From Thermoplasmatota archaeon (GTDB lineage: Archaea; Thermoplasmatota; Thermoplasmata; Lutacidiplasmatales; JAMCUS01), in assembly GCA_023379385.1 (NCBI GenBank), contig JAMCUS010000024.1, positions 30,776 through 94,775 of the forward strand: 64,000 bases of DNA, given 5' to 3'. The notes under the pieces were generated by a model. It was given only the letters and a program-made list of their open reading frames with translations. It did no database searches and was not told the DNA's origin. How positions within the stretch are numbered: position 1 is the stretch's first letter; each line of letters begins with the position of its first letter. Of the stretch, positions 8,470 through 51,040 are shown one piece after another. The position numbers and the translations under genes are program-made.

Positions 8470-9846
8470 ATTTAAAGATTGATAGGGGTGTGGGGGAAGC
8501 TATAAATCTCCTCCCTTCAGGATGGAGATACATGGACTTCCCCCATCTTCCTTATCAACATCTTTATATATATATGTGCATATAAATGCCCTGTTATGAT
8601 TATATCAATACAGATTATATCCCAATAAAAAACTTACTAAAATTTTGAATGACCAAATAGAACTATGCAGGCGATTATATAACGCTGGTCTAACAGAACG
8701 TAAAGAAGCTTATAGATTATCCCAGACTTCTCTTACCTATAATTTACAACAAAATGAATTGCCTGCTGTTAAATCAGACAATCCTGAATATAACGATATT
8801 CATTCACAGGTTTTATGCGATGTTCTTAACCGATTAGATAAGGCTTATAAAGGATTCTTTGAACGAATTAAAAATAAAGGTAAAAAAGGTAAGAAAGCGG
8901 GTTTCCCACGTTATAAATCCAGAGGCAAATATAACTCCATTACCTATCCTCAACTCGGTTTTAAATTAATTCATAAAAACAACGGTTCTAAAAAAGGTAT
9001 ATTACAGTTAAGCAAGATAGGATATATTAAAATCATTGTAAGCAGAGATATAACATACGGTAAAATCAAGACGTGTACTGTTAAAAGAGATAAAGCAGGC
9101 GATTGGCTCGCTACCTTTACTGTGGAATTACCCGATACAGTTAAGAAGCCATTAGAACAGATTAAAGAACAGGATATTATTGGTGTTGATGTCGGCATAA
9201 ACAAATTAGCCGTGTTAACTGATGGTATAGAAGTTAAAGAGATAGATAATCCAAAGTTAATAGCGAAGTATGAAAAAGGTATTAAAACACTACAGAAACA
9301 ACTATCCAGAACAAAGAAACGCTCTTATAACAGAGCCAAGATAAGAAAGAAAGTCGCTAAAAAACAGCGTAAGTTAGCGAATGCACGAAAAGATAATCTG
9401 CATAAAGCATCTAATCAAATAGTGGAGAGTGAAAATATAATAGTCTTTGAGGATTTAAATGTTCAGGGAATGGTTCAGAATCACAATCTAGCAAAGAGTA
9501 TATCAGACGGTTCCTGGGGCAAACTGATAGACATGTGTGTTTACAAAGCCGAAAATGCTGGTAAATACATAGAGTTTGTAAATCCAAGAAACACAAGTCA
9601 GTTATGCTCACGTTGCGGAGCAGTTGTAAAGAAGGACTTATCCGTGAGAATCCATAGTTGTAATAACTGTGGATTAGTAATGGATCGGGATCTTAACGCT
9701 GCTCTGAACATAAGAGAGAAATACATACGGAACGTGTGGAACTCTGTAAAAATGCCTGCTGATGCTCTGACCTCTACTCATCTAAATGAGCAAGCTGGAG
9801 CGATGAAGCAGGAATTTCCGATGCTTTAGCTGAGGGGTAGTTCACA
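8470..9846 (+). mobile_element. IS200/IS605-family tnpB-only element (no tnpA), with a palindromic left end. The right end lies 97 nt upstream of tRNA-Ala.
   Basis: Ends were defined by comparison with the deleted copies at 50441..51000 and 45737..45945. The shared LE begins at ATTTAAAGATTG and the RE ends at ...GGGTAGTTCACA (9846). Confidence 0.6.
8600..9829 (+). CDS. tnpB: TnpB (IS605 OrfB family). There is no in-frame ATG and a 5-nt deletion just after the ancestral start is likely, so the gene may be a pseudogene or use a non-AUG start.
   Basis: 'YQYRLYPNKKLTKILNDQIELCRRLYNAGL' canonical TnpB N-terminus, RuvC-I 'IGVDVGINKLAV', RuvC-II 'IVFEDLNVQGM', Zn finger 'CSRCG...CNNCGLVMDRDLNAALNI'. 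The remnant copy at about 45.93 kb preserves ATGATAAGAACATATCAATACAGG in frame. Confidence 0.7.
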   Translation, partial: LYQYRLYPNKKLTKILNDQIELCRRLYNAGLTERKEAYRLSQTSLTYNLQQNELPAVKSDNPEYNDIHSQVLCDVLNRLDKAYKGFFERIKNKGKKGKKAGFPRYKSRGKYNSITYPQLGFKLIHKNNGSKKGILQLSKIGYIKIIVSRDITYGKIKTCTVKRDKAGDWLATFTVELPDTVKKPLEQIKEQDIIGVDVGINKLAVLTDGIEVKEIDNPKLIAKYEKGIKTLQKQLSRTKKRSYNRAKIRKKVAKKQRKLANARKDNLHKASNQIVESENIIVFEDLNVQGMVQNHNLAKSISDGSWGKLIDMCVYKAENAGKYIEFVNPRNTSQLCSRCGAVVKKDLSVRIHSCNNCGLVMDRDLNAALNIREKYIRNVWNSVKMPADALTSTHLNEQAGAMKQEFPML

Positions 9847-9943: not shown

Positions 9944-10028
9944 GGGCCGGTAGATCAGCTGGAAGATCGCTATCTTGGCAAAAGATCCAAAATGGTAGAG
10001 GTCGTGAGTTCAAATCTCGCCCGGTCCA
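9944..10028 (+). tRNA. tRNA-Ala (anticodon GGC) with a putative 12-nt intron after position 37
   Basis: Acceptor GGGCCGG/CCGGTCC with the G3:U70 Ala identity pair, discriminator A73, D-arm GATC/GATC, T-arm GTGAG-TTCAAAT-CTCGC. Anticodon stem CTATC...GGTAG encloses TTGGCA[aaagatccaaaa]T. Confidence 0.7.
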
Positions 10029-14809: not shown

Positions 14810-16465
14810 ATGGATTTAAGTCTCATGAAAGGAGGATTTACGTTTAAAAAAAGTGCTAGACCTGTACGATTACCCAAAGGTTCAAAAAATGTATCTGAAG
14901 CAACTACAGATATAACGCCAATTAAGGCAGTAACAGAAAGTAATTTTAGTGAAATAGAACTGGATCCTGTTGAATTTCCTTATTCATATATCAGAGTATT
15001 GTACGATAATGTGTTAAATGAATACATATATGAATGTATTGAGCCACCCATGAAAGATGAAGAATGGGATTTTGTTACAGCAATTGAGGAGGAATTGGTT
15101 AAAAAGGTTCAATACATAACCATAGATGACAAAGAGAGTAAAGTGAAATATCTTATGGAACTCGCAAATGAAGTTATGCGTTCAATGGATATACACTTCA
15201 GTCCCCTGGTAAAGAGACGGCTTGAGTATTATATAAGAAGGGATTTTATAGGATATGGTATTATCCAGATTCCAATGATAGATACACAGGTAGAGGATAT
15301 CTCTTGCGATGGAGTCGGAATTCCCATCTATATTTATCATCGTAAATATGGCTCTATAAGATCCACACTAAAATTCACCAACGAAAAGGATCTTGATTAC
15401 TTTGTTGTATGGCTTGCACAAAGATGTGGTAAGCATATCTCTGTTTCATCACCTATGTTAGATGCAACGGTTCCGGATGGCTCAAGACTGCAGGCTACAT
15501 TGGGTAAATACGTTACAAAAAAAGGCTCATCTTTTACTATAAGAAGATTCAGAGATAATCCATTCACACCCATTGATATGATCAAGTTTAAAACAGCGTC
15601 TCTGGAAATGATGGCCTATTTGTGGCTTGCCATTGAAAGTGGACAATCCATGATGGTATGTGGAGGTACTGCAAGTGGTAAAACAACCACTATAAATGCT
15701 GTCCTGTTATTTATACCACCTCAGATGAAGATTGTATCTATTGAAGATACCAGAGAACTTAATCTTCCACACGAAAATTGGGTGCCGCTTCTTACCAGAA
15801 GTGGATTTGGTGCAAAAAATCCAATAACAGGTAAGTCTCCAGGTGAAGTGGATATGTTTGATCTTCTTACCACATCACTTAGACAGAGACCCCAGTACCT
15901 GATGGTGGGAGAAGTTAGAGGTGCAGAAGCTTTTATAGTATTTCAGGCCATGGCAACTGGTAAAACAAGCTATACCACTTTCCACGCAGAATCTGTTTCT
16001 GCAATGGTACATAGAATGGAGAATCCACCAATCAATCTACCCAGAGCTTTAATGACTTCACTCAATCTTGTATCACTTCAGGCACAGGTTAAAGTGGGTA
16101 ACAAAATGACGAGACGTGTTAAAGGGCTTACTGAGATTGTAGGTATTGACCCGGAAACAAATGAACTTATAACAAATACTGTATACTCGTGGAATCCTGC
16201 TGATGATTCATTTACCTACAGCGGTCATAGTTACATATATGAAAAGATAGCCTCATCCAAAGCATGGAGCATGAAGGATATGGAGAAGGAGGTTAAGAGG
16301 AGAGCCGATGTACTTAACTATCTGGTACTAATGGAGTCAAAGGGTACAAGAGAACATCCATTTACTTTCAAGGATGTAGCCAAAACAGTAGCGTGGTATT
16401 ATAAAGAACCACTGGTAGTTGCAGAAAATGCTAAAAAAATGCTTTCTGAGGAAGGTATAGGCTGA
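14810..16465 (+). CDS. FlaI/TadA/VirB11-family secretion ATPase (paralog 2)
   Basis: Walker A 'GGTASGKTTTINA', 'LMVGEVRGAE', 'TFHAE'. Collinear similarity to paralog 1. Confidence 0.8.
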   Translation: MDLSLMKGGFTFKKSARPVRLPKGSKNVSEATTDITPIKAVTESNFSEIELDPVEFPYSYIRVLYDNVLNEYIYECIEPPMKDEEWDFVTAIEEELVKKVQYITIDDKESKVKYLMELANEVMRSMDIHFSPLVKRRLEYYIRRDFIGYGIIQIPMIDTQVEDISCDGVGIPIYIYHRKYGSIRSTLKFTNEKDLDYFVVWLAQRCGKHISVSSPMLDATVPDGSRLQATLGKYVTKKGSSFTIRRFRDNPFTPIDMIKFKTASLEMMAYLWLAIESGQSMMVCGGTASGKTTTINAVLLFIPPQMKIVSIEDTRELNLPHENWVPLLTRSGFGAKNPITGKSPGEVDMFDLLTTSLRQRPQYLMVGEVRGAEAFIVFQAMATGKTSYTTFHAESVSAMVHRMENPPINLPRALMTSLNLVSLQAQVKVGNKMTRRVKGLTEIVGIDPETNELITNTVYSWNPADDSFTYSGHSYIYEKIASSKAWSMKDMEKEVKRRADVLNYLVLMESKGTREHPFTFKDVAKTVAWYYKEPLVVAENAKKMLSEEGIG

Positions 16466-16779
16466 ACCTATAGTACCTATAACCCATTAAATTGCAATTG
16501 ATTGCTAGATATGGCATTCTACGTACTGGGAAGTACATGCTACTTACAAAAACAGGGTTTACCAGCATTCAATTATCTATCGTAATTGCTCTAACGGTTT
16601 ATAATGAACATAGTTCTGAACATATTCTATTCAAATCTATTATATTGCGATGTGTCCTCTCTATCTTACCTCCTTAGTTAATGGATTCCCGTAACATGGC
16701 AAGGGATGTATGTCATATTGGTAAACAATCGTCAACCCAATACGACAATTTCAAATATTACTAATTAATCTATTCTGTT

Positions 16780-28619: not shown

Positions 28620-31553
28620 CTATATTTCGCTGTTAAGAGCATCCCTTATGATTATAATATCGTGTATTGACTCATAAAGCACAGGATCATAATTGTTATT
28701 TAGAAATTTGTTTATTTGTACATCAACCTCTTTCATATTTTTTCTCTCAATAAGATCCTTTAGGATTTGATATATTTGCATGAGGTTGGGGTCCTTATCC
28801 ATGTATGTATCTAAACCATTCATTATATTTATTGCTTTTTTAATATCTGAGGCATGTATCATTGATACAGCCTTTGTTATATAAAAATAAAACAGTAATT
28901 TTTTATTATTCAAAGAATCAAATATATAATATGCGTCGTTAAAATACTTTTCTCCTCTTGATTGTTCATTCAGCAGGTATGACAATAATCCAAGATTGGT
29001 ATCGATCGTACCGAGCAATGATTGCTTTCCCCTTTTTGTAATGATTATTTGTGCCTGAATTAAGAGTTCATACGCCTTTTCCCAGTTTTTTTTATATTTT
29101 TCTATTCTTCCAAATGTGTTAAGAAGGGTACCCTTTTCGTTGAGAAGATTGTATCTTTCAGCTATATCCAGACCTTTTGAAGAATATTCCATAGCCATAT
29201 CATACTCTTTGTTGTTTAAATACAGGTTTGATATATTATTATATATATTACATTCCAGTGACAGATCTGCAATCTTTTTTGCTATATCTATTGCCTTTTT
29301 GTAAAATTCAAGAGAGGTATCCATTTTTTTAAGGCTGGAATAAACTGTGCCAAGACCATTATATGACGACACAAGCAGTTCTGGCGACGAAATATTGAAA
29401 GCAATATCCTGGCAATGCTCAAAATGTTTTTTTGCGTTATCTATGCTTCCCATCTCTATATAAATATACGCAACTCTTTCGTGAATTTTTCCCATACGAA
29501 GAAGATTATCATATTCCATTTTTTGTTTTTTAAGAACATTCAGAATTTTAATATATTCTGTTAGGGCATTGTTTTTTTCGTCATAAGTTTCAAGTAAAAT
29601 TGCGTGAAGAATAAAGAGGCTAGCGTCGTTAGAATCCTTGTTGAGCAGCATATTTACAAGAGATATCATTTCTCTGCCCAAGCCTGCATCTATCATGTTT
29701 AGGTAATGTTTTACTAAAGAACTTTTGGCTTCAATGATTTTATCACAATTTATAGCATGATATACCATTTCATATGTTATAACACCTATTCCCTCCTTTG
29801 TCTTATTAGATATGTTCAGATAGTGGTCGTATGCAAGTTCATGCCACCTTTTTTTTAGATCCTCTGAACTGTATTTATTGAAATACTCTCTGATAAGATC
29901 ATGTATTGATATAAGGTTTGTATTTGAGACGTATACGAAACCCTTTTTAATAAGCTGTTTAAGAATTGACTTATCCTTATCATCTTTTGTAATCGTATAT
30001 TCAGGCACCGGGTATCTGTAAATTGATACTTTACCCAGCAAATCTCTTTCAGTATCTGTAAGTTTTGAATTAATTGATTTATCTATGAAACTTTTGATGT
30101 TACTATCTATAATTGACAGGTCTGATTCGTTGTCTATAAGTGTGAGAAGGAGTGGATGTCCTGAAGTTATCTTATGTATCTCTTTGACAACCCTTTCGTT
30201 CGTGATATCCTTCAACTTTAAAAAACTAATTGTTCCATTAAGATCAAACCCAGATACATAAATGTCATTTATAGATGAAAATATATTGTCAGATGCTTTT
30301 TCCCTTCCCAAAAGGATCAGATTGCCTTTTTTACTCTTCTTCATAACTTCATTCAGTATTCTGTATATATGCGATAAAACATCAACAGCATATTGGATAT
30401 TGTCAAATATTATTAAAAGATCTGGAATGGCCTGAACATCATCGTAAAAAATTTTTTCAATGACAGATCTATTTACAGAGTCAGAGGTACTGAGATAGGT
30501 AGATAAATAGGGCCTGTTTAATGTAGAAAGATGTGTGGCAATAAGTTCCATAATATGCAATTCAGATATGCCTTCATATAGATCAATCCATATTATACTG
30601 TTTTTTTTATCTTCTAAATATTTTTTCACTATAGAGCTTTTACCTATACCGGCTATTCCCCATATAAGAACCGATTCTCCGGATAATTTTAAAATATCAT
30701 TCATTTTTGTTAAATAGGTCTCTCTATCCACAAAATTATTCTGTTCATATTTATTACCATTTTTTGGAGGTTGTTCTGAATCTCCAACTGCATTGAGTTC
30801 TTTTTCATTTTTTATTACGTTAGTTTCCCCTTCTAGAATTGCAAGCATACGTTTAGATACGCTATCAACGGATATTGGTAAAATAAATGTTATGTTGTAT
30901 ATTGTAACATAATCAATTATCTGGTGTATAAATTTTACAATGGAATCTTCTCCATTGTGCGTAGCAAGAAAATCAATTCCATCCAGAAAAAGCATATCAC
31001 CATTTGATAAGGTACTTGTTATTGTCAAAAGAATAGTTACAATTTTAGTAGGGTCTATACTGTCTTCAGCCTGAATTTTGGTAAACCAGTATGTTTTTAC
31101 ATGTTCATTATTCTCAATAAATCCTCTTTTTGCAGGTCGTGATAATATCAATGCCTTTGAATTGCCATGAATTAATGAATAAAATTTTTTATATACCAGT
31201 TTTGGAGCTAGATCCTCAATTAAATAAATTTTACCAGTATTTGCAGTATTTGTATTGAGAATATTTTCAGAAGGCAAAGTCTCCTTAACGTTCCTGCTAA
31301 ATAACCAGTTTATAGCATCCTGATCATCGAGTTTTTTTGCATATTTTTTCCCCTTAATAGTCAGTGAAAAAATCACATTATCATATAGTGGCATCTTTTC
31401 TATCAATTCTTTATTCATAAGATTTTTAAGTGCAGCGCTCACGTCACTTTCAGATATTGATAATATTCTCGACAAATTCTTCAAATTACTTTTATTATCT
31501 TTAGCATCCCAATTATAAAGGTATAACAGAATCCTTTCCTCCAAAAGCTTCAA
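28620..31553 (-). CDS. STAND-type P-loop NTPase with N-terminal winged-helix plus an unknown (DUF835-like?) domain and C-terminal TPR repeats
   Basis: HTH-like 'LKNLSRILSISESDVSAALKNLMNKELIEK', Walker A 'VLIWGIAGIGKSSIV', Walker B-like 'LLIIFDNIQ'. The C-terminal about 430 aa contain repeated TPR-like 34-aa helical units. Confidence 0.6.
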   Translation of the reverse strand: MKLLEERILLYLYNWDAKDNKSNLKNLSRILSISESDVSAALKNLMNKELIEKMPLYDNVIFSLTIKGKKYAKKLDDQDAINWLFSRNVKETLPSENILNTNTANTGKIYLIEDLAPKLVYKKFYSLIHGNSKALILSRPAKRGFIENNEHVKTYWFTKIQAEDSIDPTKIVTILLTITSTLSNGDMLFLDGIDFLATHNGEDSIVKFIHQIIDYVTIYNITFILPISVDSVSKRMLAILEGETNVIKNEKELNAVGDSEQPPKNGNKYEQNNFVDRETYLTKMNDILKLSGESVLIWGIAGIGKSSIVKKYLEDKKNSIIWIDLYEGISELHIMELIATHLSTLNRPYLSTYLSTSDSVNRSVIEKIFYDDVQAIPDLLIIFDNIQYAVDVLSHIYRILNEVMKKSKKGNLILLGREKASDNIFSSINDIYVSGFDLNGTISFLKLKDITNERVVKEIHKITSGHPLLLTLIDNESDLSIIDSNIKSFIDKSINSKLTDTERDLLGKVSIYRYPVPEYTITKDDKDKSILKQLIKKGFVYVSNTNLISIHDLIREYFNKYSSEDLKKRWHELAYDHYLNISNKTKEGIGVITYEMVYHAINCDKIIEAKSSLVKHYLNMIDAGLGREMISLVNMLLNKDSNDASLFILHAILLETYDEKNNALTEYIKILNVLKKQKMEYDNLLRMGKIHERVAYIYIEMGSIDNAKKHFEHCQDIAFNISSPELLVSSYNGLGTVYSSLKKMDTSLEFYKKAIDIAKKIADLSLECNIYNNISNLYLNNKEYDMAMEYSSKGLDIAERYNLLNEKGTLLNTFGRIEKYKKNWEKAYELLIQAQIIITKRGKQSLLGTIDTNLGLLSYLLNEQSRGEKYFNDAYYIFDSLNNKKLLFYFYITKAVSMIHASDIKKAINIMNGLDTYMDKDPNLMQIYQILKDLIERKNMKEVDVQINKFLNNNYDPVLYESIHDIIIIRDALNSEI

Positions 31554-31644: not shown

Positions 31645-31753
31645 TAGCCCCGGCAGGATTTTCTCAATATTATTCGAACCTGCGTCGCGGGATGTCTCCA
31701 GATATTGTGCATCTGCCAGAGTCCCACATGATTGACCACTACACTACGGGGCT
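31645..31753 (-). tRNA. tRNA-Gln (anticodon CUG) carrying two insertions (putative introns): 22 nt in the anticodon loop (37/38) and about 14 nt at the T-loop/T-stem junction (about 59-61)
   Basis: Minus-strand read: AGCCCCG-TA-GTGTAGTGGTCAATCAT-G-TGGGA-CTCTGG[cagatgcacaatatctggagac]A-TCCCG-CGAC-GCAGG-TTCGAAT[aatattgagaaaat]CCTGC-CGGGGCT-A. Perfect 7-bp acceptor stem with A1:U72, GGTTCGAAT T-loop. Confidence 0.55.
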
Positions 31754-37466: not shown

Positions 37467-38030
37467 ATCAATCCGGATAAACAGGTCAACGAAACCTGCT
37501 GCATGGCTATGCCCTACATGAGTCAAATATTTGAACTCTTAGTGCTGAGTGCCAGTATCTGTCTTCGCTGTATTGTCAGATTGCATCTATGAATGCTTAT
37601 GCGTGTTTGCGAAAAGGCAGAAAAGGCAGGTTTCGCCCTGGTCCATAGGATAGGATCATAAGGATGGAGATGTTAACTATGTAACGGTGAAGGGCTGACC
37701 TTAGATTTTACATGTGTGTAAGAGAGCAAAATATTTTGACAAAGTATTCAAAAAATCACCCTCAAAAAATATTTTTTAGGATTAAAATAAACCGTTTTTG
37801 GTATTCTTTTACAGCCTGTTGAGTAAAAACAACGATACATCCATTGATCAAGGTATAATTCTATACGACTTTATTTAGCATATTTTTCTTTTTGCATGTT
37901 TTTACTGGTTGTACAGGATATATATCCAGTACAAAAAGTAAAAGAATAAATATAATGTAAACATATAGAATAGATGCAGGATACGAGCATGGCATATTAA
38001 TTCATATCTTAATGTTGTGGTGTACATATC

Positions 38031-50440: not shown

Positions 50441-51000
50441 TGTGAACTACACCATGCTAAAGCATCGGAGCTTCCAGCTTCATCGTTCCAGCTTGCTCAT
50501 TTAGATGAGTAGAGGTCAGAACATCCACAGGCATTTTTACAGAGTTCCACACATGCCGTATGAATGCTATATGAGATCTAACCTCTCTCTTATGTTCAGA
50601 GCAGCGTTAAGATCCCGATCCATTACTAATCCACAGTTATTACAACTATGGATTCTCACGGATAAGTCCTTCTTTACAACTGCTCCGCAACGTGAGCATA
50701 ACTGACTTGTATCTCTTGGATTTACAAACTCTATGTATTTACCAGCATTTTAGGATTTGTGAGTACACATGTCTATCAGTTTGCTCTAGGAGGAGTCTGA
50801 TATACTGCCTGCACAGTTCCAGCTGATAGTTTAGAATTTTAGTAGTCTTTTTATTTGGATACAGTCTGTATTGATATGTGTCTATTATAGATAGACATAT
50901 ATATATGTGTAGTTATAGTTATGTTAAGGAAGATGGGGGAAGTCCATGTATCTCCATGCTAAGGCGTCGGAGTATTATAGCTTCCCCCATTCCCCTAACA
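50441..51000 (-). mobile_element. internally deleted (about 820-bp deletion) derivative of the IS200/IS605 tnpB element that retains both ends (MITE-like)
   Basis: The reverse complement of 50925-51000 equals the LE palindrome of element 1 (GGGGGAAGCTATAA...ATACATGGACTTCCCCCATCTTCC). The reverse complement of 50441-50770 equals the tnpB 3' end plus RE. Deletion junction is at about 50770. Confidence 0.65.
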
Positions 51001-51040
51001 ATCTATAAATGTTATATACTCTTTTTGATTATATTCAGTC

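Follow-up and report, generated by a model that had tools for sequence, protein, structure and literature searches.

We found that the minus strand of positions 31645–31753 in a 64,000-nt stretch of archaeal DNA, called the window below, carries a tRNA-Gln(CUG) gene that is split by two introns, one at the canonical position 37/38 and one in the T-loop at 59/60. Unspliced, the gene spans 109 nt and reads AGCCCCGTAGTGTAGTGGTCAATCATGTGGGACTCTGG-cagatgcacaatatctggagac-ATCCCGCGACGCAGGTTCGAA-taatattgagaaaa-TCCTGCCGGGGCTA, where the two lower-case segments are the insertions; the mature tRNA has 73 nt, and a CCA end is not encoded. The host is a Thermoplasmatota MAG of 34% GC, with 29–41% GC across the window and 31–34% around the gene. 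A sequence-only reading had already proposed a tRNA-Gln(CUG) with two introns, one of them at a non-canonical T-loop position, and the comparative evidence given here supports this. From sequence comparison, we consider it quite probable that the gene is functional and that both introns are spliced in this AT-rich archaeon.

The locus displays the 7-bp acceptor stem AGCCCCG/CGGGGCT, the discriminator A, GGTTCGAAT and, after removal of 22 nt, the anticodon loop CUCUGGA. In its unspliced form, it escapes the usual tools. ARAGORN gave no call, either in default mode or with intron search, and the Rfam tRNA model RF00005 found nothing at the gathering threshold, nor in the surrounding 300-nt region at E values up to 10, as is expected for a gene with a T-loop insertion. 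When both insertions were deleted, ARAGORN called tRNA-Gln(ctg) with exons of 58.7% GC, showing that a textbook tRNA fold does emerge, as had been claimed, once the two segments are taken out. Deletion of the 14-nt segment alone was sufficient for the ARAGORN intron search, a check suggested together with the original reading, to report tRNA-Gln(ctg) with a 22-nt intron beside the anticodon; deletion of the 22-nt segment alone furnished no call. We also scanned both strands of the 64 kb for acceptor-stem and T-arm combinations, allowing up to 60 nt of insertion in the T-loop. The only GC-rich candidates were the tRNA-Gln locus and a tRNA at 9944–10028. This outcome, together with a score of 78.2 bits (E 5.9e-17) against a covariance model of related genes, shows that the locus is not a chance match.

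With the insertions removed, all elements of an archaeal tRNA-Gln cloverleaf are in place: a 7-bp acceptor stem, a D-arm, a 5-bp anticodon stem, CUG in a 7-nt loop, a 5-bp T-stem and a 7-nt T-loop. The conserved nucleotides U8, A14, G18 G19, U33, G53, U54 U55 C56 and A58 are all present, and the stems are fully paired except for U13.U22, which all relatives have as well. The first pair is A1:U72 and the discriminator A73. This combination is found in 84 of 84 related Thermoplasmata sequences, where it is partly built into the search pattern, and also in most metagenomic tRNA-Gln genes among the matches listed.

We compared both introns with the bulge-helix-bulge (BHB) motif. The strict form, hBHBh', consists of two 3-nt bulges with a 4-bp helix between them and, on either side, an outer helix of 2 bp or more (PMC5829648, PMC4090602). 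In the relaxed form, hBH or bulge-helix-loop, the central helix is accompanied by a single intact outer helix and a single 3-nt bulge, and the other splice site falls in a loop at the distance expected from symmetry (PMC5829648, PMC3239211). Exon 1 (31716–31753, minus strand) covers positions 1–37 with the 5' acceptor strand, the D-arm, the 5' strand of the anticodon stem and C32 U33 C34 U35 G36 G37; from the consensus of 84 Thermoplasmata orthologues, it departs solely at position 19 and within the anticodon stem, whose base pairs are preserved. It is followed by intron 1 (31694–31715, minus strand), 22 nt with the sequence CAGATGCACAATATCTGGAGAC, at the canonical position 37/38. The intron reported by ARAGORN has the same length and sequence. 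It forms a strict hBHBh' motif, in which the anticodon stem is followed by the bulge AC|A38, a 4-bp central helix (C32:G, U33:A, C34:G and U35:G), the bulge G36 G37|C and an outer helix AGAU:AUCU of 4 bp that closes a 7-nt loop. The earlier placement of a 22-nt insertion after position 37 is thus confirmed by ARAGORN and by the strict BHB alike.

Exon 2 (31673–31693, minus strand) comprises positions 38–59, that is, the 3' strand of the anticodon stem, the variable loop CGAC, the T-stem strand GCAGG and U54 U55 C56 G57 A58 A59. Exon 3 (31645–31658, minus strand) supplies U60, the 3' T-stem strand CCUGC, the 3' acceptor strand CGGGGCU and the discriminator A73. Between them lies intron 2 (31659–31672, minus strand), 14 nt with the sequence TAATATTGAGAAAA and a GC content of 2/14 (14%). 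Four registers of this insertion, from 57/58 to 60/61, yield the identical mature T-loop UUCGAAU; we place it at 59/60, a listed non-canonical intron position (PMC4090602), because of homology and the BHB rule. The insertion of about 14 nt in the T-arm that had been noticed initially is hence real, but its site is 59/60 and not the junction of T-loop and T-stem at 60/61.

Intron 2 is laid out as 1 + 7 + 4 + 2 nt, the geometric minimum of a BHB: the first nucleotide belongs to a bulge, the next 7 correspond to an outer helix of 2 bp closed by a triloop, 4 make up one strand of the central helix, and the last two lie in the other bulge. In the central helix, U54:A, U55:A and C56:G are standard pairs, while G57 faces an A. 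The outer helix consists of an A.G opposition followed by a single A:U pair, so that 0 pairs directly adjoin the bulge. The 3' splice site is located in the 3-nt bulge AA|U60 between the T-stem and the 3-bp helix UUC:GAA, and the 5' splice site A59|U is effectively in a loop, four positions across. Intron 2 is therefore not a strict hBHBh', in contrast to intron 1, but with the 5-bp T-stem, the bulge AA|U60 and the helix UUC:GAA it has the form of a relaxed, hBH-like motif. Of the BHB motifs expected at both junctions, only the one at intron 1 is strict. In a nearest-neighbour model, the BHB-like conformer of the T-arm has -7.4 kcal/mol versus -8.1 for a competing fold with a 5-nt bulge, which puts it 0.7 kcal/mol above the local minimum free energy. 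We considered a kink-turn for the G.A and A.G oppositions by the 5' bulge but abandoned this reading, as these purine oppositions enclose the bulge instead of following it. The A/T-rich upstream boxes TATATATA (about -28 to -35) and TAAATTATAA (about -12 to -21) were likewise set aside as promoter evidence, as the spacer is 80% AT and the promoter/terminator scan was bacterial and uninformative for an archaeon.

For comparison, we scanned one genome per species for genes that resemble tRNA-Gln but whose T-loop is longer by 4 or more nucleotides. At the same tRNA-Gln site, 107 loci were found to carry an insertion, all but about six of them labelled Thermoplasmata or Thermoplasmatota (about 100 MAGs, including Candidatus Lutacidiplasma silvani and UBA184) and located on contigs of 60–73% GC. 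Among these loci (L007–L113), 84 distinct Thermoplasmata sequences are exactly 107 nt long and are tRNA-Gln(CUG) genes that lack a canonical intron and are interrupted at 59/60 by 34 nt. We aligned them (A1) and built a covariance model (R1) from this family. U54–G57 are paired with the four intron nucleotides that precede the 3-nt bulge NN|U60 in 100% of the cells, the 5' bulge is AA|N in every sequence, and compensatory changes occur in 3/3 pairs of the outer helix next to the bulge; alignment positions 1–10, 52–58, 95–96 and 99–107 are fixed by the search pattern. Overall, 98.8% of the structure is paired, compared with 17–50% when the partners are slid, and 0 of 500 column shuffles matched the observed pairing or covariation. 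The exon positions 11–51, which the pattern leaves free, are nearly all invariant or nearly so, in contrast to the highly variable interior of the intron. Despite this freely varying interior, the intron is exactly 34 nt long in all 84 sequences; the BHB requirement alone does not explain the fixed length.

The window gene matches the model R1 over its full length, from model position 1 to 107, and its 14-nt insertion falls at the intron site of the family, where AGAA-AAU is aligned to CGAA-ACU and G57.A is flagged as the sole non-standard pair. Its exons are orthologous, with 4 differences to the A1 consensus in 73 positions, one of which is a compensated G30:C40 for A:U that three family members have as well. 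Shared are also the insertion between A59 and U60, the 3-nt bulges AA|N and NN|U, and the pairing of U54–C56 with the 3' part of the intron. Different are the introns themselves: the family lacks a canonical intron, and its 59/60 intron is a strict hBHBh' of 33–34 nt (34 nt in A1) whose outer hairpin is GC-rich, whereas the window gene has only 14 nt with G57.A and almost no outer helix, plus the extra canonical intron of 22 nt. With this length, intron 2 is the shortest of 104 distinct T-loop-intron sequences that we tabulated. Because of the R1 match at the family site and the likeness of the exons, intron 2 is best read as an inherited 59/60 intron that was shortened and AT-enriched in this lineage, not as a fresh lesion. 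The view that multi-intron or non-canonically interrupted tRNAs are rare in euryarchaeal lineages fails for this clade, in which the 59/60 intron is present in about 100 species-level genomes.

Interruption of tRNA-Gln at 59/60 reaches beyond the Thermoplasmata. We detected it in an Asgard MAG (L057), a Woesearchaeota MAG (L087) and an Aenigmatarchaeota MAG (L062), and in the metagenomic contigs L124, L166, L172, L189, L227 and L233 among the matches listed, some of which have two or three introns. The species of the window does not appear among the listed matches of the metagenome scan. The unclassified archaeon L101 (35% GC) combines a 16-nt 59/60 intron with a strict motif and a D-loop intron. 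Several of the non-Thermoplasmata genes have added D-loop and/or canonical introns and reach up to 188 nt unspliced. Across the 104 distinct T-loop-intron sequences, the central helix has 4/4 pairs in 96 cases and 3/4 in 7; one is a mis-parse. Among the 3/4 cases, G57 is unpaired in the window gene, in L124 and in the GC-rich Thermoplasmata L046 (AGAA), L038, L048 and L111 (all GGAA), which have these motifs in place of CGAA. The G57 mismatch thus appears to be tolerated in other lineages, although these relatives, unlike the window gene, carry strong outer helices. In L142 (44% GC), which has two neighbour genes in common with the window at 39–47% identity, the tRNA-Gln gene has nearly the same exons and a 49-nt canonical intron, but no T-loop intron. 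Among the three lineages compared here, the canonical intron stands alone in L142, the T-loop intron stands alone in the 34-nt family, and both occur together only in the window.

The identical tRNA-Gln gene is found at the same locus in six other assemblies of the same species. The seven copies of the locus are 99.85–99.97% identical overall, and this variation is too low to be informative about constraint. The neighbouring gene (28620–31553, minus strand) encodes a 977-aa protein with a weak TrmB-like match at the N-terminus, a DUF835 domain, an AAA_22/AAA_16 NTPase domain and TPR repeats. It had been described as a large STAND NTPase gene directly beside the tRNA; the DUF835, AAA and TPR neighbour is indeed there, but we see no link to the tRNA and no synteny in relatives. 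No protein synteny was found between the window and the 107 genome loci, and the nearest homologues of the neighbouring S53-peptidase gene are 45% identical and have no tRNA-Gln nearby on their contigs. Judged from these comparisons, the window lineage appears to be isolated. In the assembly GCA_027324445.1 (L002), the sequence from about 14760 departs from the window at 37654, just past a 96-aa ORF; there follow a transposase of the IS110 family and genes for the biosynthesis of aromatic amino acids. The difference resembles a rearrangement at strain level, located at an insertion sequence.

The only other tRNA of the window, at 9944–10028 on the plus strand, is a tRNA-Ala(GGC) with G3:U70 and A73. 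It contains a 12-nt intron at 37/38 with the central helix UUGG/CCAA, the 3' bulge AA|U and an outer helix of just one A:U pair. ARAGORN in default mode mislabels this gene as Cys(GCA), and in the Rfam alignment the anticodon is misplaced. Given that the tRNA-Ala intron is minimal too, mini-introns look like a style of this genome. Directly upstream lies a TnpB/IS605 OrfB gene (8645–9829; Pfam Cas12f1-like_TNB and OrfB_IS605). An inverted copy of its 3' end region, 88.6% identical over 368 nt, lies at 50441–50806, and a further match of 77% links 8470–8680 to 50800–51010; the regions concerned are 8470–9846 and 50441–51010. A related copy is present in L003 at 15944–16613.

How would such a transcript be processed? 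In the mechanism that we propose, the 109-nt precursor would be transcribed with two protein-spliced introns, the second of which would be the shrunken descendant of the T-loop intron that about 100 species of Thermoplasmata have conserved in their tRNA-Gln(CUG). The 3' part of intron 2 (GAA) is predicted to pair with U54-U55-C56, so that each splice site would fall within a 3-nt bulge or a loop, at a distance of four "pairs" from the other. An archaeal EndA would then cut at G37|C and C|A38 as well as at A59|U and A|U60, and a ligase of the RtcB type would join the three exons to give a normal 73-nt tRNA. A tblastn search with the M. jannaschii EndA (PDB 1a79) detected no EndA in the window or in the Thermoplasmata loci examined. 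Homologues appeared only in L138 (814–1326) and L153 (92–598), with 35% identity over 171 aa; both are unrelated loci, and the same short contigs carry an intron-less tRNA-Gln. A weak match in L198 proved to be ribosomal protein S6e. The characterized EndA of the Thermoplasmatales is of the α'2 type, and for α'2 and α4 enzymes the cleavage of relaxed motifs is reported to be poor or absent (PMC5829648, PMC4033280). This reported strictness, together with the failed strict hBHBh' motif, weakens the case for functional splicing of intron 2.

Introns of this kind are documented elsewhere. The closest likeness is the pre-tRNA-Cys(GCA) of ARMAN-2 (Candidatus Micrarchaeum acidiphilum), which has a relaxed hBH intron at 59/60 as in the window (PMC3239211). 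In both, the T-stem is the outer helix, there is one good 3-nt bulge with a central helix, and the second outer helix is missing. ARMAN-2 differs in the isoacceptor, in the phylum and in its ε2 EndA, for which broad specificity has been shown (PMC3239211); the additional canonical intron is found only in the window gene. The pre-tRNA-Glu(UUC) of Methanopyrus kandleri is a "euryarchaeal" two-intron case like the window, having a strict canonical BHB intron and a relaxed HBh' intron at 20b/21, but there the second intron is in the D-loop and not in the T-loop and the EndA is an (αβ)2 enzyme (PMC5829648). Thermoproteales and other Crenarchaeota have multi-intron tRNAs with BHB introns, including 59/60, up to three per gene and down to 11–12 nt in length; these lineages differ by their (αβ)2 EndA, their many disrupted genes and introns with signs of transposition (PMC4090602, PMC8450103). 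In contrast to these crenarchaeal introns, the 59/60 intron of the Thermoplasmata behaves like a single orthologous intron that is inherited vertically.

What has been observed is the anatomy of the gene, its homology and the BHB motifs, strict in intron 1 and relaxed in intron 2; these raise the question whether the gene still works. The relaxed motif of intron 2 and the strict in vitro specificity reported for α'2 (PMC5829648) would be in line with a recently inactivated pseudogene, in which the BHB was lost through a C-to-A change opposite G57 and the disappearance of the outer helix, splicing ceased and the exons have had no time to decay. We regard this as unlikely. There are 0 stem-breaking substitutions in the 73 exon positions, the differences from relatives being compensated or wobble changes; no conserved loop nucleotide is lost, nothing is truncated and the BHB of intron 1 is perfect. 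The same G57 mismatch is present in other lineages. Moreover, intron 2 has been remodelled to an AT-rich sequence that is 20 nt shorter, while the exons have remained GC-rich. Such a difference between exons of 58.7% GC and an intron of 14% GC suggests that the exons were held by selection while the intron drifted to the composition of the genome, which implies a long coexistence. The codon usage points in the same direction: in the 32 window ORFs of 250 aa or more, CAG is the majority glutamine codon (203 CAG, 119 CAA), so that a CAG-reading tRNA should be in demand. A decaying pseudogene had been named as the alternative from the start, and the intact exons, the ARAGORN call and the CAG demand now disfavour it. 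The CAG preference is itself unusual in a window of 34% GC, given that the same ORFs have GAA/GAG at 717/348 and AAA/AAG at 952/363.

Two further explanations carry far less weight. The 14 nt could be retained, so that the RNA works, or has another role, with a T-loop of 21 nt. Apart from the weak BHB, nothing further speaks for this, and cytosolic tRNAs need a 7-nt T-loop for the interaction between D-loop and T-loop. The insertion also sits at the exact BHB-intron site of about 100 related species, and the GAA-AA|U signature, which pairs with U54–C56, is retained at its 3' end; we consider retention highly improbable. Since tRNA 3' halves are common targets of integration (PMC4033280), one could also think of a remnant of an integration event that split the 3' end of the tRNA, or of a tRNA-like sequence formed by chance. 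This is barely conceivable in view of the R1 E value, the mere two GC-rich tRNA-like candidates in 64 kb, the identity of the gene in independent assemblies and the absence of a duplicated tRNA 3' end in the window; an att-like duplication was sought with the 14-mer of exon 3, which does not recur in the window even when as many as 2 mismatches are allowed. A functional tRNA-Gln(CUG) gene with two spliced introns consequently remains the reading that we prefer.

In summary, the kind of intron described here is already known, as 59/60 introns and relaxed hBH introns have been documented in ARMAN-2 (PMC3239211), while we found no description of a conserved T-loop intron of Thermoplasmata tRNA-Gln in the literature searched. 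According to reviews, Euryarchaeota with α4 or α'2 endonucleases have canonical introns only (PMC4090602); a T-loop intron in about 100 Thermoplasmata species is a clear exception to this statement. There is also a practical side. ARAGORN calls no tRNA-Gln in L101 and L124, and of four Thermoplasmata loci submitted to Rfam, three (L017, L010 and L102) were missed and L035 gave a borderline 31.3 bits. Because ARAGORN and Rfam miss the window gene and its relatives, the tRNA complement and the "completeness" of such MAGs can be under-called when no BHB-aware finder is used; tRNAscan-SE 2 models non-canonical introns of this kind (PMC8450103). With its 14 nt at the geometric minimum of a BHB, intron 2 offers a natural minimal substrate for testing which motif elements the endonuclease of this phylum needs. 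One may speculate, tentatively and with considerable doubt, that this lineage processes mini-introns without a proper second outer helix (the 12-nt intron at 37/38 of tRNA-Ala and the 14-nt T-loop intron with G.A in tRNA-Gln), and that the 59/60 intron is old and selectively maintained in the Thermoplasmata. If true, the processing of mini-introns would indicate an endonuclease with a broadened substrate range that evolved in a phylum whose characterized α'2 enzyme is strict, and the 59/60 intron, fixed at 34 nt in 84 species-level sequences while its sequence is free, would contradict the textbook picture of canonical-only introns in euryarchaea.
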